The translations under genes and the position numbers were made by a program. Below, piece after piece: positions 1 to 60,677 of a stretch of DNA of 64,000 nt (its first letter is position 1; every line of letters begins with the position of its first letter). Source of the DNA: a virus (taxonomy: Duplodnaviria > Heunggongvirae > Uroviricota > Caudoviricetes); the IMG/VR virus record IMGVR_UViG_3300049215_000070; one strand, written 5' to 3'. A model generated the notes under the pieces. The model was not told where the DNA came from. It did no database searches and saw only the letters and a list, made by a program, of their open reading frames with translations.

Positions 1-115
1 GGTTGAGAACGTCTGGCAGGCTATTCCTACGGCGGCGCGTGGCAAGATGGTGCGCGCGGACGTTCACGCGGTGCTAGATGCAATCAACCAGCTGGCAATC
101 AAAGAGATTCAATGA
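1..115 (+). CDS. 3' fragment of hypothetical protein (complete copy at 58740..59108)
   Basis: Reads in frame to TGA at 113-115. Identical to the C-terminus ...AINQLAIKEIQ of ORF 58740..59108. Confidence 0.7.
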   Translation, partial: VENVWQAIPTAARGKMVRADVHAVLDAINQLAIKEIQ

Positions 116-594
116 TACTTCAGGATGTCATAGACTTCGCCGCGGGAAGCTTCGACTGCGTTATGGGTTACCCGGGCCGGTACGCCGACGGCAGCAAGGA
201 AAAGCCGCGCACCGGCAGCCGTGAGTACGTCACCTTGCGTCACAGCGCGCCAACGTATGACGCCGCATTTGGCTGGTACCAGGGCAACAACGGCGAGCAC
301 GAGCTGAGCTGCAAAATGATCGCCACGTTAGAAATGGCACGCCGAAGCGTAGGCAAGATCTCGTACAAGCCTAAGCTGTACTGGCGCCATGTTGACAAGG
401 TCGAGATGTATAAGGACGCGTGGAGGGTCGCGCACATCCGCACCCGGCTGTACATCGATGGCGTACGCAGTTACGGCGTCGCGCAAATCAAGGAAGGCCC
501 GCGCGCATACATGCAGCTGGTTGTCGACAACGCCCCTAATGTGGCACTATTGACGCTTCAGGATTATGAGCAGCACACAGGAGAGACAGCATGA
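112..594 (+). CDS. hypothetical protein (160 aa)
   Basis: ATGA start/stop coupling with upstream ORF. GC-rich ORF. No motif recognised. Confidence 0.6.
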   Translation: MILQDVIDFAAGSFDCVMGYPGRYADGSKEKPRTGSREYVTLRHSAPTYDAAFGWYQGNNGEHELSCKMIATLEMARRSVGKISYKPKLYWRHVDKVEMYKDAWRVAHIRTRLYIDGVRSYGVAQIKEGPRAYMQLVVDNAPNVALLTLQDYEQHTGETA

Positions 595-767
595 TTAGGA
601 TTGTGGATGAGAAGATTTTCAGCTTAACTAAAAATCAGTACCGGGATCTTAGATTCGAGTTTGATCAAGACCCAATTTACTGGTACTCGACCGATAAAGA
701 CTTCGAGTATTGGCTGGAAACCGTGAAAAAGATCCAGCACACCACTTACCGCGAAGAGAACCCATGA
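591..767 (+). CDS. small hypothetical protein (58 aa)
   Basis: AGGAGA RBS 8 nt upstream of ATG. ATGA overlap with neighbours on both sides. Confidence 0.5.
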   Translation: MIRIVDEKIFSLTKNQYRDLRFEFDQDPIYWYSTDKDFEYWLETVKKIQHTTYREENP

Positions 768-874
768 AGTACTCCTGGTACGTGATGATGCTGACCTGCG
801 TTTCGTTCGCGCTGGCGGGTGCAATTATCTACTTTGGCGGGCTATTGATGCTTGCGGCGTTTGGTGAGCTATGA
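764..874 (+). CDS. small hydrophobic membrane peptide (36 aa)
   Basis: MKYSWYVMMLTCVSFALAGAIIYFGGLLMLAAFGEL. ATGA coupling at both ends. Confidence 0.45.
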   Translation: MKYSWYVMMLTCVSFALAGAIIYFGGLLMLAAFGEL

Positions 875-1425
875 CAGACCGAGAGATCCTTTTGGTGGTA
901 ATGAAAAGATTGCGCAAATACGCCGAAAGCAAAACTCCTGCAAGCCCAAGATTTTTGAGCATGGAGGCCGACTGGATCGAGCGCAAGATGGGAGAGCAGG
1001 AAATCGAGCGCAATACCGTTAGCGGCTTGTGCGCGCCATTTGTTCCGGGTGATGTCCCAGGTAACGCCGTAGATTTAAAGCCCGTATACTCCGAGCCAGG
1101 AGCCATCAAGCCCGTAGACCCCAAGTTTGAATGCGATTGCGGCGCCAAGGAGTGGGGCACGGAGCATCGCTATTGGTGCCAAACCAATCCTCGTGCAAAC
1201 CATATGCACGCGTGGGTGCGTTTCAATAAGTTCCCGGGGCTGATGAGGTGCATACATGGCGCGTGCCTGGCTGTGTGGGACGATGGGCAGATTTACCCGA
1301 GCTTTGATGCATACCTCAAGTGTCAGGCTTTTCTGGAATCTTGCGAGAAAGAGTCAAAACCAGATCCCTTGCTAGAGCGTCGAGCCGCCGAAGACAAATA
1401 TCTGAACTGGGACTGGGGCTATTGA
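871..1425 (+). CDS. hypothetical protein, Cys/His-rich C-terminal half (possible Zn-binding)
   Basis: 184-aa ORF translationally coupled. Contains CDCG...C..H.H...C.HGAC pattern. Confidence 0.6.
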   Translation: MTDREILLVVMKRLRKYAESKTPASPRFLSMEADWIERKMGEQEIERNTVSGLCAPFVPGDVPGNAVDLKPVYSEPGAIKPVDPKFECDCGAKEWGTEHRYWCQTNPRANHMHAWVRFNKFPGLMRCIHGACLAVWDDGQIYPSFDAYLKCQAFLESCEKESKPDPLLERRAAEDKYLNWDWGY

Positions 1426-1643
1426 TGGCGGACGAGGTATCCCCGGTAATACGCCTTAGGCAGAGGAACTGCATTGGCAGCCGCGGCGCCGAGGATCACG
1501 GCTGGATCAAGGGCTTGGCCGACAAGACCCATCACTGCGCCTTCTGTGGCGTAAGCAAGCCCGACTGGGAGCAGATGATGAATGAGATGTGGTACAGCCC
1601 GGGGATCAACAGCGCGCAGTCTGGGCCAACGGGATACCCATGA
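1425..1643 (+). CDS. small Cys/His-containing protein (72 aa)
   Basis: ATGA overlap with upstream stop. HHCAFCG motif. Confidence 0.45.
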   Translation: MADEVSPVIRLRQRNCIGSRGAEDHGWIKGLADKTHHCAFCGVSKPDWEQMMNEMWYSPGINSAQSGPTGYP

Positions 1644-1684
1644 GCGAAGATTACAAAAATCTGGGAATTATATACTTAACCCCC

Positions 1685-1713
1685 TTGACATCCTTAAGGG
1701 AGTCATCTACACT
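1685..1713 (+). promoter_or_regulatory. sigma70-like promoter: TTGACA - 17 nt - TACACT
   Basis: Perfect -35 TTGACA (1685-1690), 17-nt spacer, -10 TACACT (1708-1713), in an AT-rich gap upstream of the ATG at 1752. Confidence 0.55.
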
Positions 1714-1741
1714 ATCAGCACTGGTTAGATTATTCTTAAGG
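1692..1741. promoter_or_regulatory. pair of palindromic operator-like sites CCTTAAGG (1692-1699) and CTTAAGG (1735-1741) bracketing the -10
   Basis: ATCCTTAAG at 1690-1698 is the exact reverse complement of CTTAAGGAT at 1733-1741. The first site lies in the promoter spacer, the second at about +20. Confidence 0.45.
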
Positions 1742-1751
1742 ATCAGCGCAG

Positions 1752-2009
1752 ATGGCCGAAGTGACACAGTTTGAGCAGGCAATTGACGAAGCCGGGTATG
1801 GTTTTTCCCAAAAAAATCTGACCGAAACCCACGAGACAATTGAGCATTTTGTTGCGGCGCGAGGCAGGCCACTGGTCGTAGATACCGAAAATGGTACTTT
1901 GCACATTTGGGAGAATGTGCAGCAGGCGAAGGGGCTGGTGCGCGGCAGCTTGATTGTGATGGATGCCGGAGATACCCGGTTTGCACATTTCGATGGTGAG
2001 AAGATTTGA
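1752..2009 (+). CDS. hypothetical protein (85 aa)
   Basis: First ORF downstream of the predicted promoter. No motif recognised. Confidence 0.55.
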   Translation: MAEVTQFEQAIDEAGYGFSQKNLTETHETIEHFVAARGRPLVVDTENGTLHIWENVQQAKGLVRGSLIVMDAGDTRFAHFDGEKI

Positions 2010-2042
2010 AATGAACGTCAAGCACCACAATCAGCCAGCTCA

Positions 2043-2276
2043 ATGAATATGAAGTCAGCAGCGCGGACAGTGGCGCGCCAGGAATATCCGGCCAGCCGAC
2101 AGCATCCCGATTGCCACCGTATGGTGGACTGGGAAAAGCCGGTTCTACCCGTTTTGTCACCGGGGATGGCGGCGAAAAGTGGAGGCGTCGTGTCCTCCAT
2201 GCTGCCCCGACATGGGAAGCCGGTGCAATTCCGGCCTGACTTCACTTCCATAAAAGAGGTGCCCCATGGTGACTGA
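2043..2276 (+). CDS. hypothetical protein (77 aa)
   Basis: ORF fills the gap between neighbouring genes. Weak call. Confidence 0.3.
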   Translation: MNMKSAARTVARQEYPASRQHPDCHRMVDWEKPVLPVLSPGMAAKSGGVVSSMLPRHGKPVQFRPDFTSIKEVPHGD

Positions 2277-2526
2277 CGCCGACCCGCCACCGATGCCGAC
2301 CGCCGAGGAAGCATTGCCGGTAGCAACGGCAAGCATTATGACTAAAAAGAAGTTGCAAGAAATGGGCGTCCCCCTTGAGGTCTCAGCATATATTTTGAAG
2401 CTCGAAACAGCTCTCAGGGAAGTTCTTTGGCAATGCCAGCATGGCCGCGCAGGGTCCGCTCCGAGTGACGGAATTGAGCGGCGCATTGAATCGCCAGAGT
2501 TCACAGCAACACAGGGTGACGGGTAA
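2266..2526 (+). CDS. hypothetical protein (86 aa)
   Basis: ORF in the co-directional gene train. No motif. Confidence 0.45.
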   Translation: MVTDADPPPMPTAEEALPVATASIMTKKKLQEMGVPLEVSAYILKLETALREVLWQCQHGRAGSAPSDGIERRIESPEFTATQGDG

Positions 2527-2529
2527 ATC

Positions 2530-2925
2530 GTGGATAGGTTCGAAGCGTTTACGGCGTATTTGATCTCTCTTGCGAAAGAGCGCCCTTACAAAATAGCTGG
2601 TGACGCTGCATGCGGATATTGGATGGCAATAGAATCAATGGCGCGCGCCGCTGAACTTGCAATGCATCAGCCAGCAACATCGAGTGACGGAGTAGAGCAT
2701 GGGAAACCTAAAGTAAAAGCGACGTTGCAAAGTGATGGGGTGTTATACAACACTAAAACACCCTCAGCCACTCCCACGCACGCGCCCGACCCGGAGCGCA
2801 TCGCCAGCCACGCCTGCGGCTACGGCTGCATCGAGCGTGGGCATCCTGAGCCTGACTGCCCCAAGCACGGCTGGGTGGTATCCGAGTGCCCTAGTAACTA
2901 CCTGACGTCGCGTGATACGTGGTAG
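2530..2925 (+). CDS. hypothetical protein immediately upstream of terminase large subunit (candidate small terminase subunit, speculative)
   Basis: GTG start. 131 aa. Sits where a small terminase subunit gene usually sits. C-terminal Cys/His cluster. Confidence 0.4.
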   Translation: MDRFEAFTAYLISLAKERPYKIAGDAACGYWMAIESMARAAELAMHQPATSSDGVEHGKPKVKATLQSDGVLYNTKTPSATPTHAPDPERIASHACGYGCIERGHPEPDCPKHGWVVSECPSNYLTSRDTW

Positions 2926-2982
2926 ATCAAGAAATGACCTACAACCGCCTGAGGGCCTCTGAGCGCCGCGAGACCGAAATGG

Positions 2983-4587
2983 GTGCCACAACCATCTGAC
3001 ATACTGGAGATCGGCCTTCGGCAGGGCTTTACGAAAGCTCAAACTGCAGCAGCGCTTCGCTCTCTTGACGACTTCGAGGTCGAACGTCTGGCGTGGATGT
3101 GCCGCTGGGTTGACGCGCGTCACGCTTTCCAGGTTGTTCCCGACGGGCAATGGTCCAACTGGGTAATCCTGGCCGGGAGAGGCAGCGGCAAGACCCGCGT
3201 AGGCGCCGAGTGGTCTGGCATGCGCTGCGCCATGGGCGAGAAGGGTCACCGTCACCTGGTAGTCGCGCCAACGAAAGCAGACTTGAGGGCGGTGTGCTTT
3301 GAGGGCGACTCTGGGTTGCTACGCGTGATACCGCCCAGCCTTATCAAGTACTACCACAAAACGCCCGCTCCTGAGATCGTGCTGCATAACGGCGCGCTGA
3401 TTGGCGGGATCGCTGCTGAGGCGTTCGAGCGTACCCGAGGCCCGCAGTGGCATGGCGCCTGGTGTGACGAGGTAGCGGCCTGGGGTGAGGGCGGCAAGGC
3501 TGATCCCGAAGAGGTGTGGGACACGATGGTGATGTCCATCCGGTTAGGTCAAGACACCCGCATCCTGGTGACCACGACGCCCAAGAACCGGCCACTGGTG
3601 AAGCGCCTGGTGGCGGATGAAGACAGCGTTATGACGTCCGCTAGCACGCACGTCAACACCTCGAACCTGTCCCCTGAGTTCGCGCGCCGAATCCTCAAGT
3701 ACGACGGCACCAAGATCGGACGGCAGGAGGTCTACGCGGAGCTGATTGACGCCGAGGAAGGCGGCATCATCAGCCGCAGCTGGCTGCGCCATTGGCCCGC
3801 CAACAAGCCGCTGCCTGAGTTCCATTTTATCGTGATGAGCCTGGATACCGCGTTTAGCGAGTCCGACCACGACAAGAAAAAGCAGACCACCGACCCGAGC
3901 GCGTGCAGCGTCTGGGGGTGCTTTAAGTACGAGCGTACGCTGCCCAGCGGGGAAAAGATCGAGAAGCCGGGGATTATTCTGCTGGATTGCTGGGCCGAGC
4001 ACCTTGGTTTTCCGGACCTGGTGGACAAGGTCAAGAACGAGTCAGACCCGGACAAGATCCGCTACGGCAGGAACCTGAGCGCCAAGCCCGTCATCACCCC
4101 AAGCAACGTGCCCAAGGCGTACAGGCGCATGGCACCGCCCAAGATGGGGGGGAGGGCCATTGACCTGATCGTTATCGAGGGCAAGGCCAGCGGCAAGAGC
4201 CTGCGTCAAACGCTGATGAAGGCCGAGATCAACAGCGTGGAGTTTAACCCGGGGAACGCGGACAAGCTCAGCCGGGGCCATTTCATCAGCCCAATCATCA
4301 AAGATGGTATCCTATGGGTACCCGATTCGCCCACCCCGGACAAGAACGGCAACCCCAAGTTCAGGAGCTGGGCCGAGCCATTGGTGGAGCAGCTGTGCAG
4401 CTACAGCGGCGAAGGTTCAGTGGTTCACGACGACTTGTACGACACCGCGACGCAGGGGTTGCGCGTGATCGACTGGTACTGGCTGCACCACCTAGAGCAA
4501 AAAGCCAAGAAAGCTAAAGGCGGCACCGGCATCCACGAGGACCGGCAGCCCGACAAGCGCATCATCACCAACCCGTACGCCGAGTAA
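2983..4587 (+). CDS. terL: terminase large subunit (ATPase + nuclease)
   Basis: Walker A VILAGRGSGKT. Length 534 aa. Followed by the portal gene. N-terminus uncertain: GTG at 2983, or first in-frame ATG at 3097. Confidence 0.85.
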   Translation: MPQPSDILEIGLRQGFTKAQTAAALRSLDDFEVERLAWMCRWVDARHAFQVVPDGQWSNWVILAGRGSGKTRVGAEWSGMRCAMGEKGHRHLVVAPTKADLRAVCFEGDSGLLRVIPPSLIKYYHKTPAPEIVLHNGALIGGIAAEAFERTRGPQWHGAWCDEVAAWGEGGKADPEEVWDTMVMSIRLGQDTRILVTTTPKNRPLVKRLVADEDSVMTSASTHVNTSNLSPEFARRILKYDGTKIGRQEVYAELIDAEEGGIISRSWLRHWPANKPLPEFHFIVMSLDTAFSESDHDKKKQTTDPSACSVWGCFKYERTLPSGEKIEKPGIILLDCWAEHLGFPDLVDKVKNESDPDKIRYGRNLSAKPVITPSNVPKAYRRMAPPKMGGRAIDLIVIEGKASGKSLRQTLMKAEINSVEFNPGNADKLSRGHFISPIIKDGILWVPDSPTPDKNGNPKFRSWAEPLVEQLCSYSGEGSVVHDDLYDTATQGLRVIDWYWLHHLEQKAKKAKGGTGIHEDRQPDKRIITNPYAE

Positions 4588-4589
4588 CT

Positions 4590-4907
4590 ATGGCAACCGA
4601 ACTAAGCTTTAACGCAGTCACGACCAACGCCGACGGAAGCGCGTTGACCCTGCCGGTGACCTACACCGCCCTGATCGACACCGTCAACCCGCCCGTGAAA
4701 GCGTACCCCATCCAGGCGAACATAGCCCCGGTGGCTGGTTTGATTATCGTGACCTTTGCCGAGCTGGGCTTCGTGCCTGCCGCGAACCAGAAGTACTTCG
4801 TTGAGGTGACCGCTACCGACAGCGCCGGAACTTCTGGACCCTCCAACGAGGCGACGTTCACCAACACGGTCGTGCTCAGCGAGCCGACGGGTTTAAAGGT
4901 TGGCTGA
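4590..4907 (+). CDS. hypothetical protein between terminase and portal (105 aa; carries a polymorphic residue, L vs P, between the two copies)
   Basis: ATG 2 nt after the terminase stop. The two sequence copies differ at 4893. Confidence 0.55.
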   Translation: MATELSFNAVTTNADGSALTLPVTYTALIDTVNPPVKAYPIQANIAPVAGLIIVTFAELGFVPAANQKYFVEVTATDSAGTSGPSNEATFTNTVVLSEPTGLKVG

Positions 4908-4962
4908 TCCGGTTATGGAACTGGATCAAGGAACTATTCAAGCCCTACTGAGCCGCTAAACT

Positions 4963-7635
4963 ATGTCGTCAGAATCCCAAATCCTGCAGAGCTTCGACGT
5001 CGAATCCCCCGAGGACGACCCAAACACCGACATCGCCACGGATGCCGCGGAGCGTAGCCAGGGCAAGGTGCCTGATGACGCCGACACCAAAGAGCTAGAC
5101 GACGGCTCAGCGATTCTGGCGCTGCATGACAACCGTGAGGTGGCTAAGGCCAAAGAGTTCTACGTCAACCTTGCCGAAGATATCCCAGAGGATCAGCTGC
5201 GTGACATCAGCACCAAGCTTCTTGACTTGTTTGATAAGGATGTTCAGGCGCGCGAAGACCGCGACAAGCAGTACGCCGAGGGGCTGCGTCGAACTGGGTT
5301 TTCTCAGGATGCACCTGGCGGCGCTAATTTCGATGGAGCTTCTAAGGTAGTTCACCCGCTGGTAGCGGAGGTAGCCATAGACTTCAGCGCGCGAGCGATC
5401 AAGGAACTGTGGCCCGCTGGTGGACCGTGCAAGGACAAGATCGTCGGCGAGCCTGACAACAAAAAGGAAGAGAAAGCCAAGCGAAAGGTGCGATGGCTCA
5501 ACTGGCAGATGACCGAGGGCATGCCGAGCATGCGCTACGAGATGGAGCAGATCCTGACGCAGGTGCCCATGGGCGGCGTGCAGTACTCCAAGCTCTGGTG
5601 GGACGTTAAGCGCAAGACGCCCGTGCATGAGGCGGTGTGGGTTGACGAGATCGTGCTGCCGTTTGCGGCGACTGATTTTTACTCAAGCCCGCGCAAGGCT
5701 CATATCCAGAAACTGGACGAGTTCACATTCCAAGACCGGGTGCGCAAGGGAATCTACCGTGACGTTGACACCATTGCGCTGGTTACTCAGCCGGATGAGA
5801 CGAAGGCTGAGCAGGCCAACAACCGCATCGAGGGAAAGTCGCAGACCAACTACAACGAGGACGGTCAGCGGGTTGTCATTGAGTTCGACGTGCAGTACGT
5901 GGTGCCTGACAGCGAGCGCGGCGTGGATGACCTCGATGATGCCGACGATATAGGTCCGGCGCCTTACCTGATTACGATTGACAAGGAGACGCGCAGTGTC
6001 CTCAGCATCTACCGAAACTGGGACGAGGACGACGAGAACATGGACGCCCTGGTCCATATCATCGAGTGGCCGTTCTTGCCGTGGCGCGGTGCTATGCCCA
6101 TTGGAGCGCCGCAAGTACTGGGAGGGATTGCGGCTGCTGCCACAGGAGCGCTCCGCGCCCTTCTGGATTCAGCCCTCATCAACAATTTTCCCGGCGGCGT
6201 CAGGCTCAAGTCAGGTCCAGTCGGTGGTCAATCTGTCACCGTAAGCGCCGGTCAGACTGCGGAGATTGACGGCGGGATCATGCAGGATGATATCCGCAAA
6301 ACCTTCATGCCGACGCCCGCGAACCCCACCAGTGCGGTGCTTCTGCAGCTGCTTGAGTTCCTGGTCGACAGCGGGCACGAGGTCGTCAAGACCACGCTGG
6401 ATGAGGCTAACGATAACGCCAATGTTCCCGTCGGGACCATCATGGCGCGCATCGAGCAGCAGATGGTGGTGTTCAGCGCCATCCACAGCCGACTCCACAA
6501 TGCGATGGGCAAGCTGCTGAAGGTGCTGCACCGTCTCAACGCCACCTACCTTGAGGACGATGACGTCGTATCCAAGACCGGCGAAAAGATGGTATTCAAG
6601 GCCGACTTTGACGCCCCGGATGATGTGATACCGGTATCAGACCCGGAGATATTCAGCGAGCTTCAGCGCATCGCCCAGGTGCAGACGGTAGCGCAGCGTG
6701 CGCAGCTGTTCCCGCAGCTGTACGACCAGCGCAAGGTTGAGCAGTCGATTCTCAAGATGATGAAGCTAACCGACCCGGAGCAGTACCTGCTGCCCAAGCC
6801 AGAACCGAAGCCGCTCAACGCGGTCAACGAAAACATCGCCGCCAGCCTTGGGCAGCCCATTACCGCGTTCCCAGACCAGGATCACCTTGCGCACATTCAA
6901 TCGCATATGTCGTTCATTGAAGACCCGCTATTCGGGGCAAACCCCCTCATGGCAGCTCAGGCGATTGGTGGCATACTCCAGAACGTCAAGGAGCACATGC
7001 TATTTTGGTACGGCACTGAGATACACCGCATCGCCTCTGAGGCCGCGGGTACTGACATATCTGAGTTCATGACCATAAAGGATGCCGAGGTGCAGACCAA
7101 GTTCGACGGCATGCTGGCCGCGGCAACGAACAATGTCCATGCGCAGAGCATGGCGGTGTTTGGCAAGCTCCCACCGGCTATCGCGAAAGCGCAGGCCATG
7201 CTGAAGCAGTTCAGCCAGCCGCCGCCGATGGACCCGAGCCAGGTCGCACTCCAGAAGGTTCAGGCAGACACCCAGCTTAAGCAGCAGCAGCTGCAGCAGC
7301 AGGCTCAGACTGATGCCCAGAACGCCGCGCTCAAGAACGCCGAAATCGCGCTTGAAGGTAAGACCCAAGAGGCGCAAATGACTGCCGACCAGCAAAGCGA
7401 CCAACTGGATGCCCAGAACAATCAGCTGAACAACCAAACCAAACAGCAAATTGCGGCGCACTCTGACCAGACCAAGCAGTCTGTTGCTCAATCTGAAAAC
7501 GCGACGAAGCTTACCGTTACCGCTCAGGACAACGAGGTGGCGCTGGAGATCGCGGGCGCGGAGCTGGCCGCTGGCAAGCACACCAACATCAAGAACGGAC
7601 AAGCAGTCGGCAAAGAAGACGGCGCCGCCAAGTAA
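4963..7635 (+). CDS. portal protein (890 aa) with Gln-rich coiled-coil C-terminal extension
   Basis: Large ORF directly after the terminase large subunit and before the scaffold and capsid genes. C-terminal QLKQQQLQQQAQ... low-complexity tail. Assignment by position and size. Confidence 0.65.
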   Translation: MSSESQILQSFDVESPEDDPNTDIATDAAERSQGKVPDDADTKELDDGSAILALHDNREVAKAKEFYVNLAEDIPEDQLRDISTKLLDLFDKDVQAREDRDKQYAEGLRRTGFSQDAPGGANFDGASKVVHPLVAEVAIDFSARAIKELWPAGGPCKDKIVGEPDNKKEEKAKRKVRWLNWQMTEGMPSMRYEMEQILTQVPMGGVQYSKLWWDVKRKTPVHEAVWVDEIVLPFAATDFYSSPRKAHIQKLDEFTFQDRVRKGIYRDVDTIALVTQPDETKAEQANNRIEGKSQTNYNEDGQRVVIEFDVQYVVPDSERGVDDLDDADDIGPAPYLITIDKETRSVLSIYRNWDEDDENMDALVHIIEWPFLPWRGAMPIGAPQVLGGIAAAATGALRALLDSALINNFPGGVRLKSGPVGGQSVTVSAGQTAEIDGGIMQDDIRKTFMPTPANPTSAVLLQLLEFLVDSGHEVVKTTLDEANDNANVPVGTIMARIEQQMVVFSAIHSRLHNAMGKLLKVLHRLNATYLEDDDVVSKTGEKMVFKADFDAPDDVIPVSDPEIFSELQRIAQVQTVAQRAQLFPQLYDQRKVEQSILKMMKLTDPEQYLLPKPEPKPLNAVNENIAASLGQPITAFPDQDHLAHIQSHMSFIEDPLFGANPLMAAQAIGGILQNVKEHMLFWYGTEIHRIASEAAGTDISEFMTIKDAEVQTKFDGMLAAATNNVHAQSMAVFGKLPPAIAKAQAMLKQFSQPPPMDPSQVALQKVQADTQLKQQQLQQQAQTDAQNAALKNAEIALEGKTQEAQMTADQQSDQLDAQNNQLNNQTKQQIAAHSDQTKQSVAQSENATKLTVTAQDNEVALEIAGAELAAGKHTNIKNGQAVGKEDGAAK

Positions 7636-26282: not shown

Positions 26283-27710
26283 ATGAAATTAAACATAGAT
26301 GGAGACCCAACAACAGGAAAATCTGCTGCTGCATTGGAAAATTCCAAAGCCAATCAAGAAGCAGCTGCTCAAGCCAAACTTAACGCAGAGCTTCAGCCAT
26401 ATGCTCAGCAAACTATTGCAGATTTAAATAGCGGAAATTATTCTGGCGCATGGAACGAGGCTTTGCAATCATCGCCGCTGTACAACACGAATTACAGCTC
26501 ACAGACAACAGATCCTTTGCTTGCCGATATGGAGTCTGCACAAGGTCTGCAGGAGCTTGATCCAAGCATTCAGTGGAACGCTACAAATACGGCTGCGTAT
26601 TACAATGCTCTAGGTCAAAATCCTGTTTACAGCGGGCAAACGGTCAAGGGGGCGAATGGCGGCACAGAAAGCTTAGGTCAAAATCCGTACGGGGACTGGG
26701 GAGCTGGGGCTGCCGTTACCAATGGAACAGACGCAAAAGCAAATCTAACGCAGGACCCCAATTCATCCCCCAATGTTTCGCAGTTCGCTGGGGCGAGACC
26801 TCGCGCTTCATTTCTTGATAAATACGGCGCCGATATTGCGGCAATTGTTGCCACGGTGGCAACCGCTGGGGCTGGAGCACCGGCTCTTGGAGCGGCCCTT
26901 GCTGGGTCAGCGGCATCGGACCTAGTCAATGGTGCAGAAGGTAAATTAACCCTGAGCGGCGCCCTTGAGGGAGCCGGGATGGCGGCTCTTGGAGCCGCGG
27001 TTCCAGGCGCAAGTAGCGCTTTAAATTCCGCCACAGGAAACGCGCTAGGCACAGTCGGTTCGAACGCGTTAGTGGGCGCCGGGGTTGGTGCGCTTGGGTC
27101 AAAGCTAACCGGAGGCAATCCATTGGTTGGAGCCATAGGAGGCGGCGCGGGGGGTGCTATACAAGCATCCGGGATAAACAATACAGTCGGGCAGCAAATT
27201 AATAGCGCCACCGGACTCCCTGTATCTGTTGGGGCTGGTTTATCTGGCGGTGCATTAGGCGCAGGGGTTGGCGCTATCACGGGCAGCTTGAGCGGCCAGG
27301 GGGCAGCAAATGGCGCCTTAATGGGTGGAGTTGGGGGCGCTCTAAGGGCTGGCGTTGGATCGGCAACTGGAAACCAGACCATAGGTAACGTTGCTGGTAC
27401 AATAGGCAGTGCCCTAGCGGGCAAATACTTGACGTCTTCCCCGGCGGCTGCTACCGCAGCAGCCGCACCGGCTACTGCTACCGTTGCGGCGGCAAAAACA
27501 CCTACGCCTGCTGCAACAACTGCCGCGCAAACAGCACCTGCGCCGACGCCTCTTTTCCAGCAGCCAACCAATATTGGCACGTACAACTTCAACAGCACCG
27601 GATTGGGTTACCAGCCAATGAGCCAGGTTAATCCAGGAATTACCAATTACGCGACTTACGGGCAAGGACCAGAAGCAAACTTCTTTGCCCCCACGCCAGG
27701 AACAACATGA
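26283..27710 (+). CDS. internal virion (ejection) protein, Gly/Ala-rich with glycine-zipper-like segments
   Basis: Long GxxxG-type runs. C-terminal NYATYGQGPEANFF motif shared with the next gene. Confidence 0.5.
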   Translation: MKLNIDGDPTTGKSAAALENSKANQEAAAQAKLNAELQPYAQQTIADLNSGNYSGAWNEALQSSPLYNTNYSSQTTDPLLADMESAQGLQELDPSIQWNATNTAAYYNALGQNPVYSGQTVKGANGGTESLGQNPYGDWGAGAAVTNGTDAKANLTQDPNSSPNVSQFAGARPRASFLDKYGADIAAIVATVATAGAGAPALGAALAGSAASDLVNGAEGKLTLSGALEGAGMAALGAAVPGASSALNSATGNALGTVGSNALVGAGVGALGSKLTGGNPLVGAIGGGAGGAIQASGINNTVGQQINSATGLPVSVGAGLSGGALGAGVGAITGSLSGQGAANGALMGGVGGALRAGVGSATGNQTIGNVAGTIGSALAGKYLTSSPAAATAAAAPATATVAAAKTPTPAATTAAQTAPAPTPLFQQPTNIGTYNFNSTGLGYQPMSQVNPGITNYATYGQGPEANFFAPTPGTT

Positions 27711-27807
27711 GAGAAACGTCCGGTATAAGGCAACTTGGCGCACTAGGCGACAACATCGAAGGGCTGGAAAAGCTCATTTCTTACCTCCGTCGAGCGGAAT
27801 CACATTA

Positions 27808-29265
27808 ATGTCGAAACTCAGAGAAATCTACAAGGGCTCATTCAAAGGGCGTCGTAACAAGCACGACGTGGTAACGGCGTACGACGGCGGATACATGGAT
27901 TTTTCCACGTCCTCTTTCGATCCGAGCACGGTTGTTCCCACGGCGGTTGACACCGGGTACGGCAGCGGCTACAACCCCAGCACCGACCCCAATGTCGCCG
28001 GTTACACGGGATCACAAGACAGCAGCCTTGCGGCGCCCGCGGCCACGGGGCTGGATCAAAATTACCTGTCGACAATCAACGCCGAGCTTGCCGCCGACCC
28101 TACCGGAGAAAACGCCGCCGCCAGTTTTGATAGCAGCAAATCAAAATCTGGCTCATCTTCTGGCTCATCTGCCGCGTCAAGCGCCGCAGGTGGTGCGCTT
28201 GGTACGCTACTCAAGGCGCTGGGTCTTGGGAGCGGAAACACCAGCGCGCAAGGTATCACCGCGCTGGCCGGGCTGCTCTCTGCCGCTGGGCAGTACAAGC
28301 AAAACTCCGCGTACGCGCCGACGTTTGCGCCGCCCGCGTTATTTGGCGGGACCTCAGGGACCACATCCGGCAACACCGCAGGCATCGCGTCGACCGGGTA
28401 CGGACCCGCTGGCGGCTACAACTACGCCAACTACAAAGGCCTGGTAGCGGGCGCCCCCGGGCTGGGTTACGCGCCGCAGACCGCGACCACGCCCACGATC
28501 CCAAATTACTACACCTACGGTCAGGGTCCGCAGCAGAGCTTTTTCACCACGACGCCGTCGAGCGCCACGCAGCCCACCGCAATGAAAAAAGGCGGCAAGG
28601 TCAGCACGCCGCAGCGTTTTGCCATGGGCGGGTTCAACACCGGCATGATGCCGCCCGTCCACCCCAACATGGGCACGATCACCCCCAGTATGGGGGTGCC
28701 TAGCGCCAATCCAATGGCGGGCGGTATTACGACCAGCGGCCCGTCAAACCCGACCGGCACGCCATCCTTTGGCGCAATGCCCGCGCAACGCGGCGCGCAA
28801 GTGCGCCCGGCGGTCCCGGCCACAATGCCTCCGCAGCAGACCCACACGCAGCCCATGCCGGGTCGAGCCTTTGCGAATGGCGGCAGCGCCGCGCCTCAAG
28901 CGTCGTCCTCGTCGTTTACCAGCCAGGTGCCTCAAAACCTGTCTGGGGTGCTCTCAGGGATGCGCAAAGCCTCTACCCCTAGTCACGCACCCCCGCTGGC
29001 TACGGGCGGCGCCTTGGCCTCCGTAAGCCGTCACGTCAAGGGTCCGGGGGATGGTACTAATGACAAAATTCCGGCACGCCTATCGCCCGGAGAATTCGTA
29101 ATTTCTGCGGATGTTGTAAGCGGCATCGGTAATGGTGACAATGGTGCAGGCGCCAGAAAACTCGATGCGTTTATGAAAAACGTCAGGAAGCACAAAGCAG
29201 AAAATGGATCTAAGGGTAAATTGCCAGCCAATGCTAGGCCAGTGGCAAGTTATCTAGGGAAGTAG
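27808..29265 (+). CDS. internal virion (ejection) protein, paralogous to upstream gene
   Basis: Shares NYYTYGQGPQQSFF. Contains KKGGKVS and FANGGSA motifs. Confidence 0.5.
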   Translation: MSKLREIYKGSFKGRRNKHDVVTAYDGGYMDFSTSSFDPSTVVPTAVDTGYGSGYNPSTDPNVAGYTGSQDSSLAAPAATGLDQNYLSTINAELAADPTGENAAASFDSSKSKSGSSSGSSAASSAAGGALGTLLKALGLGSGNTSAQGITALAGLLSAAGQYKQNSAYAPTFAPPALFGGTSGTTSGNTAGIASTGYGPAGGYNYANYKGLVAGAPGLGYAPQTATTPTIPNYYTYGQGPQQSFFTTTPSSATQPTAMKKGGKVSTPQRFAMGGFNTGMMPPVHPNMGTITPSMGVPSANPMAGGITTSGPSNPTGTPSFGAMPAQRGAQVRPAVPATMPPQQTHTQPMPGRAFANGGSAAPQASSSSFTSQVPQNLSGVLSGMRKASTPSHAPPLATGGALASVSRHVKGPGDGTNDKIPARLSPGEFVISADVVSGIGNGDNGAGARKLDAFMKNVRKHKAENGSKGKLPANARPVASYLGK

Positions 29266-29267
29266 CT

Positions 29268-29375
29268 ATGTATCGCGTTTACCAAATTATCAATGCTGAG
29301 TCTAAAAAAAGATACATCGGAATGACCAGAATGTCAGGACGCGAGCACTTCGGACACGCGTCAGTGGTGGCGTAA
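29268..29375 (+). pseudogene. GIY-YIG homing endonuclease N-terminal remnant (35 codons)
   Basis: MYRVYQIINAESKKRYIGMTRMSGREHFGH aligns with GIYxIxN...YIGS..R..H of I-TevI-like enzymes. AT-richer island. TAATG overlap with the next gene. Confidence 0.55.
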
Positions 29376-30472
29376 TGGGCGCACTCAGCTTTCTCAATCA
29401 GGGCACGGCGCCGAGCGCCAGCTCAAACTACAGCCAAAGCTCGACCCAGCTTCCCAGCTGGTACACGGACTACACGCAGCAAATCCTGAACACCGCGGCG
29501 CAGTTTGCCGCGCAACCGTATCAAACGTATCAGGGTCCGCGCATAGCCGCTCAAGACCAGAACACGGAAAACGCTTATTCCGCGGCCCCCGGCATCGCGA
29601 ACACCGCGAGCGGCACGAACACCACCGCGCAGAATTTGATTCAGCAGGGCGCGAATCAGAACAACCCCTTAGGGGCGGCGCAGCCGTACCTCAATCAGGG
29701 CACAGACCCGACGTACAACACGGTTCAGAATTACATGAACCCGTACAACACGGATGTCACGAATGCCATCGCGACCGCGGGCAACACAAATTTCAATCAG
29801 AACACGCTCCCGGCGCTGCAGTCGTCTATCATTGGTGCGGGCAACATCACCGGCAGCTCGACGGAGGGAACAAACCTCATCGAGAACGCGGAACAACAAA
29901 ACAACCAGAACATCACAAACGCGCAAGCCGCGGCGCTGCAGTCTGGGTACACGGGATCTTTGAACGCCGCGCAACAAGGCAACGCAAACGCGCTCACCGC
30001 CGGTCAAACCGCCGCCAACGCAAACACCGCGCAAGCCAACACCTCAATCAACGCCGGGACCGCGGCGTCGAACGCAGGCACTCAAGCCACCGCGAACGAG
30101 CTTGCCGCGTCGAACAATGAAAACACTCTGGGTCAGCAAAATCAGGGGTATAATCAATCCAATTTGAACCTGGCGTACCAGGACTACCTGAACCAGCTCA
30201 ATTACCCGCTCACTCGGGTCAGCGAGATGCAGGGCGCGCTATCAGGGATTCAGGTGCCGTCCGCCACCGTGAACTACAACTACGGTACCGGCGTCGGCGG
30301 CGGCAACGGCAGCGCGCAGGGCAGCACAACGTCGCCGCTTGCGAGCTTGTTCGGCACCGGAGTTGGCGCCGCGGCAGGCGCGGCTGGCAGCACGACCCCA
30401 ACCACAACCAACACCGCAGCCGGGCCGTCAAATGTCGGCGGGTTTGTCAACGGCGTCTGGCAAGGGAGTTAG
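29375..30472 (+). CDS. internal virion protein, Asn/Gln/Thr-rich (365 aa)
   Basis: Low-complexity ORF in the ejection-protein block. Confidence 0.5.
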   Translation: MGALSFLNQGTAPSASSNYSQSSTQLPSWYTDYTQQILNTAAQFAAQPYQTYQGPRIAAQDQNTENAYSAAPGIANTASGTNTTAQNLIQQGANQNNPLGAAQPYLNQGTDPTYNTVQNYMNPYNTDVTNAIATAGNTNFNQNTLPALQSSIIGAGNITGSSTEGTNLIENAEQQNNQNITNAQAAALQSGYTGSLNAAQQGNANALTAGQTAANANTAQANTSINAGTAASNAGTQATANELAASNNENTLGQQNQGYNQSNLNLAYQDYLNQLNYPLTRVSEMQGALSGIQVPSATVNYNYGTGVGGGNGSAQGSTTSPLASLFGTGVGAAAGAAGSTTPTTTNTAAGPSNVGGFVNGVWQGS

Positions 30473-34909: not shown

Positions 34910-36040
34910 ATGTCAAACACACCCGATGAACGTTCAGTCAAGATCGCTAAACTCCACGCCAAGGGCCTTTCCCAAAGGGAAATAGCCAAAAAACTCGGCA
35001 TCGCGCAAAGCACCGTCTCGGAGCGCCTCAAAAAAGTAGGCGGCTCATTCCCCGCACCAGACGGGCATTACGTCAAAGCAACCTCCACCCTTTACAGCCC
35101 AGACGGCGAGATCAAGCTTCAGTGGGTGAAATCTAGCCTAGATGAAGAGGCGCGTCAAGCAGCAGAGAAGGCCGCATTTGCGGCACTGTGCGAGACGCTG
35201 CCACGGTATGTGCCGACCAACGGCCCCGGGCACACCGACGCGGAGCTTGCGAACCTGTACGTGTTTACAGATTGTCACGTAGGCATGCTGGCATGGGGCA
35301 AGGAAACCGGGGACGACTGGGACACGGGAATCGCTGAGCGCACGCTGATTCGAACTTTCGAGGCAATGATCGCGGGCAGCCCCAAGGCGCGGGTTGCTAT
35401 AATTGGGCAGATGGGGGATTTTTTGCATTTTGACGGTTTACTGGCCGTTACCCCCACATCCAAGCACGTACTTGACGCCGACAGCCGATTCTCAAAAATT
35501 GTCAAGATCGCGATACGGGTGCTGCGGTACATCATCGACATGGCGCTTCTCAATCACGAGGAGGTCCACGTCGTCATGGCGGACGCGAATCACGACCCGG
35601 CGAGCCAGGTTTGGCTGCGGCACATGTTCACCGCGCTGTACGAGAACGAGCCGCGCGTCAAGGTCAACGACAGCGAAAAGCCTTTCTATGCGTACCAGCA
35701 CGGCGAAACCATGATCGGGTTTCACCACGGGCACACGCTGAAAAAAGAAAAGCTCCCGCTGCTGCTTGCCACGCTGTACCCCAAGATGTGGGGCAACACG
35801 CTCAAGCGATACTGCCACACCGGTCATCTGCACACGGTGGACGAGGTCGAGGCCAACGGCATGAAGATCGTGCAGCATCCCACTATTGCCGCCAAGGACG
35901 CGTACGCGGTTCGTAACGGCTGGGTAAGTCAGCGACAAGCATCATGCATTACCTATCACCAGTCTTATGGCGAAGTCGGTCGCACCGTCGTCTGCCCCGA
36001 GATGTTCGAGACAATTAATGGACCCACAAACCCTCATTGA
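34910..36040 (+). CDS. HTH (sigma70 region-4/LuxR-like) fused to a calcineurin-like metallophosphoesterase domain
   Basis: GLSQREIAKKLGIAQSTVSERLKK helix-turn-helix. Phosphoesterase motifs DCHVG, GDFLHFDG, ANHD, HHGH, GHLH in canonical order. Confidence 0.6.
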   Translation: MSNTPDERSVKIAKLHAKGLSQREIAKKLGIAQSTVSERLKKVGGSFPAPDGHYVKATSTLYSPDGEIKLQWVKSSLDEEARQAAEKAAFAALCETLPRYVPTNGPGHTDAELANLYVFTDCHVGMLAWGKETGDDWDTGIAERTLIRTFEAMIAGSPKARVAIIGQMGDFLHFDGLLAVTPTSKHVLDADSRFSKIVKIAIRVLRYIIDMALLNHEEVHVVMADANHDPASQVWLRHMFTALYENEPRVKVNDSEKPFYAYQHGETMIGFHHGHTLKKEKLPLLLATLYPKMWGNTLKRYCHTGHLHTVDEVEANGMKIVQHPTIAAKDAYAVRNGWVSQRQASCITYHQSYGEVGRTVVCPEMFETINGPTNPH

Positions 36041-39000
36041 CAAATACCGCGGCGTTCTTGGGCTTACCGGGCACGCCGCTCAGTCCACCGCAGCGAACAT
36101 CGCGGGCGGACTTGTGGGCCTTGGAAACCTTCCCAGAGGCATAGACGCCGCTGAGTCTGCCCGTCAGCTGATTACCGACAAGCTTTCCCCAGGAGAACCC
36201 GACTCGCAAACCATTGGCCTGATACGGGACATCGCCCCGGCCTACCTGGCCGCGGCGCGCAGCCCGGTCGCCAAGGCGGCGCACGCCGTCGGGGACGCGT
36301 ACGACAAAAGCGTCGACACCTACGCCGACTTAGCGTCGCGCTACCTGGGCGCCCCGGCTGGGGGTGAGGTGGCCGCATTGGGCGCCGCGCTGCCAAACGC
36401 CGCCTTTCCTGAATCAAAAGCCGCCAAAGCCACCGAGTACGCCGCCCCCGCCGCCGAATTGCTGAGCAAGTACCCGGCGACCCCGGTGCTGCCAGACGGC
36501 TCGACCCTGCGCACGCTGGCCCGTGAGGGCGCCGCAAACGCCCGCAGAGCCGACGAAGGCTTACCCCCTCCCGATGTGCTCGCAAGCGATTTCGCAGGCA
36601 GGCAGGCCGCGCACGAGGGCGCCGTGGCGCAACGTAACGCGGACCCGGCGTACATCAAGGCCAAGGTACCGGCCACGAGCGTAGACCCGTCATTGTACCC
36701 ATCTAGTTTTAGCCCGCCGGACAACGCGGAGGCGTACGTCGCCATGGATCCGCAAACCGGGCAGCACATCGGGCATGTGACGTTCGTCAAGCGCGGTGAC
36801 GGCGTATCCAGCTTGCGCATGGACGTCGCCCCCACTTATCAGGGGCAGGGCATCGGCAGCGACTTGCTGAATGACGCCATTGCAAACGCGCACGACCAGG
36901 GCCTGCCGTACCGGTCAGACACTCAGGTAAGTGTTCCGGCAGCCAAAACTTACAGCAAGCTTCCCGGGGCGATCCGCAACGAGGACGTGGATCACATGAT
37001 TGACCCGAATGACGGTCACGTCGGGGTATCCAGCAACGGTCGCGCGGTGTTTGAGATTCCGCCGAGTGCGGATGCGGACGACGCGACACCGGACGAGATG
37101 CCGCACTTCAACCCGAACAGCTACATCGGCAGCCAGGCGTACGCCGAGGGCGGTGAGGTTGCGCCTGCATTGGGGGACATTGGCGACCTGATTGCGCGCT
37201 ACGCAACCAAACCGCTGCCCGGGTTACCTGCCAAGGTGCAGGTGCCGGGAGTTGGCGGACTAGAGGTTGGTCCAAACCCCAAAATCCGCCAGGTAGCGCA
37301 AAATTACATGGACGAGGTCGGAATCAAAAACCCGCCTCAGCCCATTTACGCCAAGGCCGACCCGGTGCGCGGTAAAGCGATTGCCGCCGCCTACGACGCC
37401 GCGCAGCACAACCCCAGCGACCCGGACGTCAAGGCCTCGTACGACGCGCTTATCAAGGAAACCTTGGCGCAGTATCAGCACATCAAAAACGCAGGACTTA
37501 AGGTAGATCTTATTCAGCCCGGTCAGGCTGACCCGTACGCCGCCTCGCCGCGACTCGCGGTAGAGGATATCAACCGCAACAACCACATGTGGGTATTCCC
37601 GACGTCAAGCGGATTCGGTACCGAGGGCGCGGCGCCGATGGATCACCCACTGCTGGCGGATAGCGGCGAAACAATTAGCGGGCAACCCGCAACCGCGAAC
37701 GACATTTTTCGGGTAGTTCACGATTATTTTGGGCACGCCAAGGAAGGAGTCGGATTTCGCGCCGATGGCGAAGAGAACGCCTGGAATCAGCACGCGCGCA
37801 TGTACTCGGATCTAGCCAAACCGGCGATGACCGCAGAGACGCGCGGGCAGAACAGCTGGGTGAACTTTGGTCCTCACGCCGACGCGAACAAAGGCGCGAG
37901 CGCCGCCAGCACCGTGTACGCACCGCAGAAGGCTGTCATTTTGCCGGATGTTTACAATGATCCCGACGCCGGACGGACGATGGATTTTTTGCACATGTCC
38001 AACCTGACAGACCCGCAGGTTACGCTTGACCCTGCGGCGTACGGCACAGGCATGAAAGGCGCTGAGGCGCGCAGGGGCGGAACCAAAACCATCAGCCTGT
38101 ACCCTGCGAACATAGACCCCAAGGATATCGAGCTGCCGCTGCAAGGAAAAACACCGTACCGTGTCTCGGTTCCCGCGAGCCAGATGTACGACATGTCGAA
38201 CGATCCGCTAGGATACCGCTCGATAACGCCCAGCTACAGCGACGCCGAGGACGCCATCAGGGGTGCGGGATGGGCCGGGTATTACACACCGGATCACGAA
38301 GACCCAAGACAGCGCGGGCAGGCGCGGCTGTTTGTGCCGACGACCGCGACACGCCTTGACCCCATTGACGCGCCCGGGCCAACGAAAGCCGCCGCAGCGA
38401 AAAGCAGCGGCTTGTACGACGACACACTGGACACCTCAGATTTCTCTACCGGTGGCCTGGTTCAAAAATACGCCGACGGAGGTGAGGCAGCGGTCGCGCT
38501 CGATGATGTCGCAAACCTTATCGCCAAGTACGGCAAAGATGCCGCCCCAGCGCAAGCGGAGCATCTCGCGAATGCGGTCTCCGAGAACGGCTCCGCTACC
38601 TACAACCCAACCACCGGAGACGTCCACAGCAGCGGCTACGCCGTTCCGCACGATATTAGCCGCAGTGTCGCCCTAGACGCGCCGCCTACCGCGGGCGACA
38701 TCCATGACTTCATGCTGCAAAACCAGGACGCATTCGACAACCCGAAGGCGGCAGTTCACGTCGAGAGCGACGGTAACGGCAATCACTTCATCCACGTCGC
38801 TCACGTCGAGCCAGATTTTGATAGCGCAATGGCTGCCGCCAAGGCATTCGACGCGCCGGGAGTACGCGAGCTTCATACTGGCAACAATTTTCCTGCTGAT
38901 GGTCCCGCCGGGATCAGCGATGATGCGGATACGGGGATAGAGGATTACTTGGCGGGATCAAAGATACCAGAGACAAACCTACCGGCGGAACTGGACACAG

Positions 39001-40127
39001 AGCGCAATCAGAGACCAAGGACGGCGTGGAAATATGGGAAGCCAACGGTTGATCCTGCGCAACGGGTGGCTTTTCCGGGGATCTACAATGATCCTCGTCA
39101 GGTGATTCAGGATGCGAATTCAATGGTTGGTCCAGAAGAACCTCTGCTTGAGAGATTATTCGGCGTAAATCGTCAAGATCTATCCGACATCGCATTAGGT
39201 CGGCAAGGAAACGAAATCGGGACTCTTCCTGGGGCAAAGCCTGGATCGACTGGAGCCGCCTCAGCGCGAGCAGTAATGACTCCGCAGAACGAGCAGCGTC
39301 TGATAGACGTTCTGAACGAAGCTCGTGGAACGCCGTTACACACGGGTATGACTGGTTGGTATTCAATGGACCCTCTCTATGAAAGATTTAGGCAAATATT
39401 TGGTGACGAGGACGCGCCAGCTAAGTACCAGCAATTCAATACTCTTTCTGGAATGGCGTCTCCGGGGTCAGACGTGGGAACTGAGATTGCGCGGGGGACA
39501 TCTGCAAATTGGCTGCAAAACCAGGGACGCTTTGCTGATTTCCTAAAGTACTCTGGGGTTGCAAACGATGAGCGGGCAGGGATTCGCGATTACCCTCAGG
39601 ATATTCTCGATGTTCCTGGGCATGCGTACCACAAGACGGCGCATGCTCTGCCAATGAGCCAGTACCTGTCTTCTGGTGAGATCCAGATGAAGTCCCCGAA
39701 GGTTCCAATGTACATTGGGGCATCAGGGGTACCAGAGACTGGATTTCAATCAGATATGCCAGTAGGCGACGCCCACTGGGCGCGCGGAGTAGGTCTAGCC
39801 GATACCCGGAACCCTCGCACTTTGAAAGGAGAAAGCATCGTCCCGGGTTCGTCGGCATCGACTCCAGAAATGCAGACACTTGGTCCTTGGTGGCGAGATC
39901 GGGTGGCAGCTCAAGCCGGATATGGAGCCGTTCCAGCTCAGGCGACCGCTTGGGGGGTTTTCGCGCCGTATACAGGCGTAACATCCAACATAGGGGCGCC
40001 GAAACTAGAGATACTATCGACTCAGATAGGAAAACTAGCCCAACGGCTAGGGGTATCACCAGAAACAGCCAGGGATCTTGTGATCCAGGGTAAAGCAGGG
40101 GCGTACTCATCAGGAGGCTCCGTCTAG
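36018..40127 (+). CDS. giant virion protein (1369 aa) containing a GNAT acetyltransferase motif and an internal duplicated YA(D/E)GGE(V/A)..L.D...LIA(R/K)Y segment
   Basis: VAPTYQGQGIGSDLLNDAI is GNAT motif A (about 36820-36880). Duplicated segments at about 37139 and about 38469. First ATG at 36018. The ORF extends upstream to 35967 with no ATG. Confidence 0.6.
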   Translation: MDPQTLIDKYRGVLGLTGHAAQSTAANIAGGLVGLGNLPRGIDAAESARQLITDKLSPGEPDSQTIGLIRDIAPAYLAAARSPVAKAAHAVGDAYDKSVDTYADLASRYLGAPAGGEVAALGAALPNAAFPESKAAKATEYAAPAAELLSKYPATPVLPDGSTLRTLAREGAANARRADEGLPPPDVLASDFAGRQAAHEGAVAQRNADPAYIKAKVPATSVDPSLYPSSFSPPDNAEAYVAMDPQTGQHIGHVTFVKRGDGVSSLRMDVAPTYQGQGIGSDLLNDAIANAHDQGLPYRSDTQVSVPAAKTYSKLPGAIRNEDVDHMIDPNDGHVGVSSNGRAVFEIPPSADADDATPDEMPHFNPNSYIGSQAYAEGGEVAPALGDIGDLIARYATKPLPGLPAKVQVPGVGGLEVGPNPKIRQVAQNYMDEVGIKNPPQPIYAKADPVRGKAIAAAYDAAQHNPSDPDVKASYDALIKETLAQYQHIKNAGLKVDLIQPGQADPYAASPRLAVEDINRNNHMWVFPTSSGFGTEGAAPMDHPLLADSGETISGQPATANDIFRVVHDYFGHAKEGVGFRADGEENAWNQHARMYSDLAKPAMTAETRGQNSWVNFGPHADANKGASAASTVYAPQKAVILPDVYNDPDAGRTMDFLHMSNLTDPQVTLDPAAYGTGMKGAEARRGGTKTISLYPANIDPKDIELPLQGKTPYRVSVPASQMYDMSNDPLGYRSITPSYSDAEDAIRGAGWAGYYTPDHEDPRQRGQARLFVPTTATRLDPIDAPGPTKAAAAKSSGLYDDTLDTSDFSTGGLVQKYADGGEAAVALDDVANLIAKYGKDAAPAQAEHLANAVSENGSATYNPTTGDVHSSGYAVPHDISRSVALDAPPTAGDIHDFMLQNQDAFDNPKAAVHVESDGNGNHFIHVAHVEPDFDSAMAAAKAFDAPGVRELHTGNNFPADGPAGISDDADTGIEDYLAGSKIPETNLPAELDTERNQRPRTAWKYGKPTVDPAQRVAFPGIYNDPRQVIQDANSMVGPEEPLLERLFGVNRQDLSDIALGRQGNEIGTLPGAKPGSTGAASARAVMTPQNEQRLIDVLNEARGTPLHTGMTGWYSMDPLYERFRQIFGDEDAPAKYQQFNTLSGMASPGSDVGTEIARGTSANWLQNQGRFADFLKYSGVANDERAGIRDYPQDILDVPGHAYHKTAHALPMSQYLSSGEIQMKSPKVPMYIGASGVPETGFQSDMPVGDAHWARGVGLADTRNPRTLKGESIVPGSSASTPEMQTLGPWWRDRVAAQAGYGAVPAQATAWGVFAPYTGVTSNIGAPKLEILSTQIGKLAQRLGVSPETARDLVIQGKAGAYSSGGSV

Positions 40128-59587: not shown

Positions 59588-59863
59588 TTAGGATTGTGGA
59601 TGAGAAGATTTTCAGCTTAACTAAAAATCAGTACCGGGATCTTAGATTCGAGTTTGATCAAGACCCAATTTACTGGTACTCGACCGATAAAGACTTCGAG
59701 TATTGGCTGGAAACCGTGAAAAAGATCCAGCACACCACTTACCGCGAAGAGAACCCATGAAGTACTCCTGGTACGTGATGATGCTGACCTGCGTTTCGTT
59801 CGCGCTGGCGGGTGCAATTATCTACTTTGGCGGGCTATTGATGCTTGCGGCGTTTGGTGAGCT

Positions 59864-60418: not shown

Positions 60419-60677
60419 TGGCGGACGAGGTATCCCCGGTAATACGCCTTAGGCAGAGGAACTGCATTGGCAGCCGCGGCGCCGAGGATCACGGCTGGAT
60501 CAAGGGCTTGGCCGACAAGACCCATCACTGCGCCTTCTGTGGCGTAAGCAAGCCCGACTGGGAGCAGATGATGAATGAGATGTGGTACAGCCCGGGGATC
60601 AACAGCGCGCAGTCTGGGCCAACGGGATACCCATGAGCGAAGATTACAAAAATCTGGGAATTATATACTTAACCCCC

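Follow-up and report, generated by a model that had tools for sequence, protein, structure and literature searches.

A 35-codon open reading frame between two virion-module genes of a tailed phage is very probably the remnant of a free-standing GIY-YIG homing endonuclease gene

Two neighbouring genes of a tailed phage are separated by a gap that is completely filled by a very short open reading frame (ORF). This raises the question of what the ORF represents: the remains of a mobile element, a small protein in its own right, a bridge which carries ribosomes from one gene to the next, or a frame left open by chance. An earlier note on this DNA took it for a decayed homing endonuclease and named a stand-alone mini-domain as the alternative. 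We analysed the locus in the whole stretch of 64,000 nucleotides (the window) and conclude that the ORF is very probably a non-functional remnant of a free-standing GIY-YIG homing endonuclease gene, not of an intron-borne one. This reading is drawn from the homology of its N-terminal part, the identical position of intact genes in relatives, the empty sites in other relatives, the absence of all later parts of the gene, and the mosaic structure of the upstream flank.

The window represents a tailed-phage genome of about 59 kb, which encodes a terminase, a portal, a major head protein and replication genes, as well as a protein matching the PHROG “DNA ejection protein”. Its first 5007 bases (1-5007) recur at 58994-64000 (offset 58,993) with three mismatches (4876/63869, 4889/63882 and 4943/63936); therefore the window either goes once round the ~59-kb genome and overlaps its own start, or runs through a terminal repeat or a concatemer with slight population variation. 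The longest contig carrying the protein of the downstream gene among the 120 matches listed of 204 measures 106 kb.

Both genes flanking the ORF (Table 1) are located in the virion/DNA-ejection module, and by this position they are plausible internal virion protein genes. Pfam and NCBIfam searches of the flanking proteins gave no family. The C-terminal motif of the upstream protein (GPGDGTSD.IPARLANGEYV...; residues 409-476, window 29029-29235) weakly matches internal segments of three PHROGs (E 2e-5 to 4e-4) annotated as tail length tape measure protein, which hints at a module that the upstream protein may share with tape-measure/ejection proteins. Further along the same strand, a gene at 34910-36040 (+) lies among ejection/virion genes and encodes a protein of 376 aa that has a helix-turn-helix at its N-terminus and strongly matches phrog_704 “DNA repair exonuclease” (E 1e-123). 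It was considered as a sporadic mobile insert and rejected as such, a 47%-identical copy being present in a related contig (L002) about 5 kb downstream of the homologue of our downstream gene. At 35967-40127 (+), a 1386-aa virion/ejection-module protein contains a GNAT acetyltransferase domain (residues 253-332, Pfam E 2e-7).

Table 1. Features of the junction, in coordinates of the window
Feature	Coordinates	Strand	Remarks
Upstream gene	27808..29265	+	485-aa low-complexity virion-module protein
LSPGEFV (CTA TCG CCC GGA GAA TTC GTA)	29080..29100	+	Variant of LANGEYV; proposed endonuclease target, putatively cleavage-resistant now
Upstream gene, 3' end	29103..29265	+	Foreign (other-clade), low GC3; putative co-conversion tract
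Putative relic ORF	29268..29375	+	35 codons and TAA; fills the whole gap from the upstream stop (29263-29265) to the downstream start (29375)
Head of the ORF (residues 1-23)	29268..29336	+	Homologue of the GIY and YIG strands at the N-terminus of free-standing GIY-YIG homing endonucleases
Tail of the ORF (residues 24-35, GREHFGHASVVA)	29337..29372	+	GGTGG Shine-Dalgarno-like element 4 nt 5' of the downstream ATG
Downstream gene	29375..30472	+	365-aa protein of no family; start overlapped by the stop of the ORF

The ORF opens with an ATG at 29268, 2 nt past the TAG of the upstream gene and near a weak GGGAAG Shine-Dalgarno-like element. After 35 sense codons it closes with a TAA (29373-29375) whose last A doubles as the A of the downstream ATG, and direct reading of these coordinates agrees with the earlier description of a 35-codon ORF running by TAATG into the next gene. 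The upstream gene, the ORF and the downstream gene use three different frames; thus the ORF is not produced by readthrough of the upstream TAG, nor is it a simple extension of either neighbour. The gene callers left the 109-nt gap unannotated, and the exact product is absent from the protein records looked up. Since the window is base-for-base identical over 3-5 kb spanning the ORF in three independent assemblies (two ENA/JGI/NCBI scaffolds and one Logan contig), an assembly artefact is excluded, although this identity reflects one population and not conservation. The ORF is free-standing, that is, located between two ORFs and outside an intron or intein: a search of 28500-30000 against Rfam with E up to 1 revealed no intron or other RNA family. 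The fold of the region gave no significant structure (z-score -0.24), no promoter or terminator was found on the + strand, and megablast of 28600-30100 against the GenBank phages returned zero matches.

The origin of the ORF is indicated by its head. Over 22-23 residues it is 57-78% identical to three Pfam-positive GIY-YIG proteins, which argues for descent from this group: 18/23 residues (78%) are shared with P0003 (BLASTP E 6e-11), 16/22 (73%) with P0002 (tblastn against the window, E 7e-6) and 13/23 (57%) with P0001 (pairwise E 7e-7). The GIY element is represented by V4-Y5-Q6 and the YIG element by Y16-I17-G18, with an 11-residue spacing that corresponds to positions 2-21 of 78 in Pfam GIY-YIG (PF01541), and their register is the same as in P0001-P0003 and I-TevI. 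When all six frames of the 64-kb window were searched with P0002 and P0001, the top match of each was this ORF (E 7e-6 and 3e-3, respectively), and nothing besides it resembled either protein. None of 5000 shuffles of the head reached the observed score.

Taken alone, the ORF scores 16.2 bits against Pfam GIY-YIG (E 0.013), below the gathering cut-off of 22.6; the NCBIfam scan gave no family, and tblastn against phages gave a single match with E=9. With phmmer, nothing was found at E <= 0.001 among 1.84 billion representatives, a scale at which a 35-aa query is underpowered. A degenerate DNA pattern of the head had its sole IMG/VR match in the contig L007 described below, whose endonuclease gene is too diverged from the stub region at the DNA level for global alignment. 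The case therefore rests on targeted comparison and synteny. One can suppose that a short ORF with a sub-threshold Pfam score and no match in library-wide search is a chance frame in an intergenic spacer or an assembly error. We regard this as practically negligible, given that two bona fide endonucleases pick out this ORF from the whole window, that its head resembles P0003 far beyond what shuffling yields, that intact genes occupy the same position in relatives, and that the three assemblies coincide.

With each of the three full-length relatives, the similarity does not continue past residue 23. The tail compared with P0001-P0003 (the whole rest, the C-termini, or residues 22-40) scores no better than shuffles, and MAFFT sets it, weakly, on the C-terminal GRE...A of the full-length proteins. 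The family profile of the full-length relatives aligns to residues 1-92 of I-TevI (E 4e-4), by which the head corresponds to I-TevI residues 1-22, where GIY and YIG lie on two strands. Thus about 22 of the ~92 catalytic-domain residues are kept. The ORF contains R25, H27 and H30, all out of register with the catalytic Arg and His of the relatives: the G-to-R distance is 7 in the ORF, as against 9 for the relatives and 8 for I-TevI. No equivalents of I-TevI R27 and H31 are present; E75, N90 and the DNA-binding region are missing as well, the ORF ending at residue 35. The earlier proposal of an I-TevI-type GIY...YIG...R..H arrangement consequently holds for the GIY and YIG elements and their spacing; the R..H part is not confirmed, and the Pfam threshold is missed.

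As the catalytic Glu and Asn and the DNA-binding domain are gone, the predicted product cannot cut DNA, and since catalytic features are lacking and the Pfam score falls below the threshold, the ORF should be called an endonuclease pseudogene remnant, not a GIY-YIG nuclease. A frameshifted continuation, which the earlier note had proposed to look for, is ruled out by the six-frame search: nothing nuclease-like is left beyond the ORF in any frame of the window. The loss was therefore a deletion, not a frameshift.

The same junction was examined in related loci, which were gathered from IMG/VR, JGI metagenomes and the Logan/ENA/JGI assembly collection through protein-database matches, using the downstream protein as a handle. 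In the IMG/VR contig L007, an intact GIY-YIG ORF of 183 aa (184 aa from an alternative ATG one codon upstream) is flanked by the same two genes; the TGA of the upstream gene overlaps with its start, and it reads GCGTAATG where it meets the downstream start. Its product scores 50.9 bits with Pfam GIY-YIG (E 2e-13, cut-off 22.6) and 47.6 bits with NCBIfam TIGR01453 “group I intron endonuclease”, the latter being below the cut-off of 56.05. In the Logan contig L010, an intact 183-aa gene occupies the same junction with the same TAATG end, and its product (P0002) is 58% identical to the L007 endonuclease. The search for full-length homologues at this locus, suggested together with the initial reading, thus gave a positive answer.

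The third close member, P0003 (248 aa), came from a profile search; its gene lies on a 2162-nt contig of ERZ1426818 and is itself wedged between two genes with overlapping ends; among the 120 matches listed of 204, no fitting 200-aa neighbour places it at the junction of the window. By tblastn it matches genes annotated as Seg-like GIY-YIG with 27-41% identity. P0001-P0003 form a small and rare subgroup, with three close members among 5.8 billion proteins and no further ones in IMG/VR or in 185,579 species genomes.

The junction is empty in 12 distinct relatives (L001/L011; L002/3/13/14; L012; L004/16; L005; L006/20; L015/19; L017; L018; L021; L041-43; L044), where the flanking genes overlap directly (ATGA or TAATG) with no insert. 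It is empty also in the distant Caulobacter phage RLK. The relatives closest to the window, with downstream proteins of 78-81% identity, all have an empty junction. L005 represents the empty sibling of L007, to which it is 95% identical downstream. Two occupied junctions, 12 distinct empty ones and one relic constitute a presence/absence polymorphism, and such sporadic occupancy is the pattern expected for a homing endonuclease gene. The initial reading of the ORF as a decayed homing endonuclease is borne out by the L007 and L010 genes, the empty junctions and the match to P0003.

An additional trace of homing may be preserved in the upstream flank. The GC content drops to 0.40-0.49 (100-nt windows) from about 29050 to 29350 and is 0.6-0.7 on either side. 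The AT-richer island reported previously is therefore real, though it begins within the upstream gene, about 165-210 bp before its end, and not at the ORF. The DNA homology to the nearest relatives (L011, L041) extends up to 29102, is then lost, and returns at 29378, 3 nt past the start of the downstream gene. From about 29059 on, the upstream gene has substitutions at positions that are conserved elsewhere. Identity to the nearest clade (L001/L041) declines from 72-75% before 29056 to 67-71% in 29056-29102, 51-56% in 29103-29180 and 44-47% in 29181-29262, and identity to the other clade (the L017 group) peaks at 71% in 29103-29180. This 71% is the best nucleotide identity obtained, and the comparison gave no close donor for the foreign flank. 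In the upstream protein, the last ~60 residues are no longer of the MDAQTVSM type but of the SADVVSG type, and GC3 in the tract is 0.41 vs 0.58-0.84 in relatives.

Similar asymmetry is seen at the occupied junctions. Comparison of L007 with its empty sibling L005 reveals 38 nt of perfect identity followed by dense substitutions, mostly third-position and towards A/T, which extend from L007:3219 (homologous to window ~29055) to the endonuclease gene, while the first 60 nt after this gene are 100% identical. In L010 compared with L006, homology is present from TAATG onward only. All three endonuclease-associated alleles therefore have about 165-220 bp of foreign or divergent sequence, and only on the upstream side. 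Free-standing phage endonucleases cleave hundreds of bp away from their own gene and their flanks are co-converted (PMC2988022). From the one-sided mosaic tracts and this precedent we infer that the flank tracts arose by co-conversion during homing.

The tract also suggests where the endonuclease may have cut. It includes the motif IPARLANGEYV, of which the LANGEYV part is invariant in 12/12 empty alleles, and GEYV is kept in the Caulobacter phage RLK too. The window has LSPGEFV with TTC at the Tyr position, L010 has LSNGEFV with TTT, and L007 has LANGEWV with TGG. Hence the Tyr codon is altered in all three endonuclease-associated alleles and in none of the 12 empty ones (Fisher p = 0.0022, with n=3 associated alleles, of which the Phe alleles of the window and L010 possibly share tract ancestry). 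Based on this distribution, we infer a putative recognition/cleavage site at or near the LANGEYV DNA (window 29080-29100), which lies about 170-190 bp before the insertion point; in the carriers this site would be mutated.

These data can be combined into the following scenario. A full-length gene, most similar to that of the 248-aa P0003, would have homed into the junction of two translationally coupled virion-module genes: the enzyme of a carrier phage would have cut the empty allele of a co-infecting relative, and the carrier would have served as the repair template. Repair may have brought in the endonuclease gene together with about 165-210 bp of the carrier's upstream flank, represented now by the AT-richer other-clade tract 29103-29265 with codons changed from about 29059. 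The sequence after codon 23 or so was presumably lost later, or during abortive repair, and the leftover would be the present ORF, which still opens after the upstream stop and still closes on the downstream TAATG.

A one-step variant of this scenario is that abortive or partial homing copied the donor flank and the first ~70 nt of the gene and then switched back to the recipient, without any later deletion. It agrees with the foreign segment being uninterrupted (29103-29377) and ending sharply on the right, where the downstream gene starts, and with the rest of the endonuclease gene having left no remnant in the window. However, the 12-codon tail is neither recipient-like nor similar to a homing endonuclease gene, and a simple template switch leaves it unexplained; moreover, the intact genes at the same site show that complete insertion happens. 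We consider the one-step origin unlikely.

The stand-alone mini-domain would suppose a functional mini-protein, for example, a domesticated regulator or inhibitor of related endonucleases. In its favour, the frame is open over the entire gap, its start is beside the upstream stop with the weak GGGAAG element, and the same sequence recurs in the three assemblies. However, the recurrence stems from a single population, about a quarter of the catalytic domain remains (~22/92 residues, without Glu and Asn), no other copy or conserved family of such a peptide was found, and the ORF is wholly absent from all the closest relatives. Hence we consider a functional mini-protein highly improbable and retain the interpretation of the ORF as a dead remnant.

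A second mini-ORF of 33 aa (MRETSGIRQLGALGDNIEGLEKLISYLRRAESH) occurs at the neighbouring junction (27707-27808, +), in a gap of ~97 nt between a 475-aa gene and the 485-aa gene, overlapping the upstream stop as ATGA and the downstream start as TAATG. This gap is absent in L005, L007, L011, L041, L044 and L017. The Pfam scan of the second mini-ORF gave zero matches; tblastn against phages gave weak matches (E 0.3-6), almost every one to a gene with the annotation endonuclease VII. In Pfam Endonuclease_7 proteins, the part to which the mini-ORF aligns is the C-terminal LG.LGDN[IV]EGL..L..YL (pairwise E 3e-8 and 1e-7), with a 9-residue gap at the expected CxxCN position. It is probably another decayed free-standing endonuclease gene, of the endonuclease VII type.

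Why the frame of the remnant has stayed open may be a matter of translation and not of the peptide. Under this explanation the ORF is a translational-coupling linker, and selection acts on the passage of ribosomes across the gap. Where the site is empty, relatives have the two genes overlapping (ATGA or TAATG); with the relic, the chain is again unbroken (stop, 2 nt, ATG ... TAATG), and the mini-ORF of the neighbouring junction spans its gap in the same ATGA ... TAATG manner. However, two cases are weak statistics, an in-frame outcome being expected by chance in roughly 1 in 3 each, and the GGTGG of the tail could start downstream translation independently. We regard selection for coupling as quite possible, while leaning somewhat against it. 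It is compatible with the origin from an endonuclease gene: the open frame may persist by preserving translational coupling and the downstream ribosome-binding site, and deletions keeping the stop/start chain were likely favoured.

We suppose, with less confidence, a broader picture that we regard as rather doubtful. According to it, dead homing endonuclease genes are kept here as gap-spanning linker ORFs which carry the coupling of essential virion genes; separately, the subfamily targets the LANGEYV DNA, forcing the Tyr->Phe/Trp change in every occupied genome.

Among the known systems, the closest parallel is provided by the Seg-type genes (SegA-SegG) of T4-like phages: an intron-less intergenic gene between conserved phage genes, its sporadic presence among relatives, and a flank that is divergent or co-converted on one side, which points to a cut some hundreds of bp away (PMC2988022). 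By this analogy, the ancestor of the relic would have worked like the Seg-type free-standing GIY-YIG endonucleases. The differences are that the relic keeps a homologous head of 23 residues only, and that P0001-P0003 represent a rare subgroup from the virion/ejection-gene module of uncultured ~59-kb phages, known here from sequence alone. The profile of the relatives fits the catalytic domain of I-TevI (PDB 1MK0, 1LN0), the head comprising its GIY and YIG strands; however, I-TevI is intron-encoded, while the locus of the window is without an intron.

Homing endonuclease genes are subject to degeneration and deletion, which constitute a stage of their life cycle (PMC2988022), and decayed endonuclease genes are well known, e.g., the defunct I-TevIII of T4 (PMC2790892). 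As in I-TevIII, an endonuclease gene would have been fixed at its site and then inactivated, with a short remnant ORF staying behind. The remnant in the window differs in being much shorter, free-standing and gap-spanning between two coupled structural genes.

The relic leaves the known working of homing elements unchanged and represents an ordinary stage of their life cycle, which is well documented here by relatives. Its modest contribution is a full “empty/occupied/relic” series, together with conversion tracts that match and a target that can be predicted: one junction displays the whole homing cycle in natural relatives, including the empty, occupied and degenerate states together with the flank tracts. 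The proposed homing history explains why a conserved virion gene has an AT-rich mosaic 3' end, which would otherwise be puzzling. In annotation, mini-ORFs like this one are to be treated as endonuclease pseudogene remnants, not as small proteins. The LANGEYV DNA is a concrete candidate, open to testing, for the region that an uncharacterised GIY-YIG subfamily recognises and, if such targeting is true, a selfish element would drive amino-acid change at a conserved structural site.
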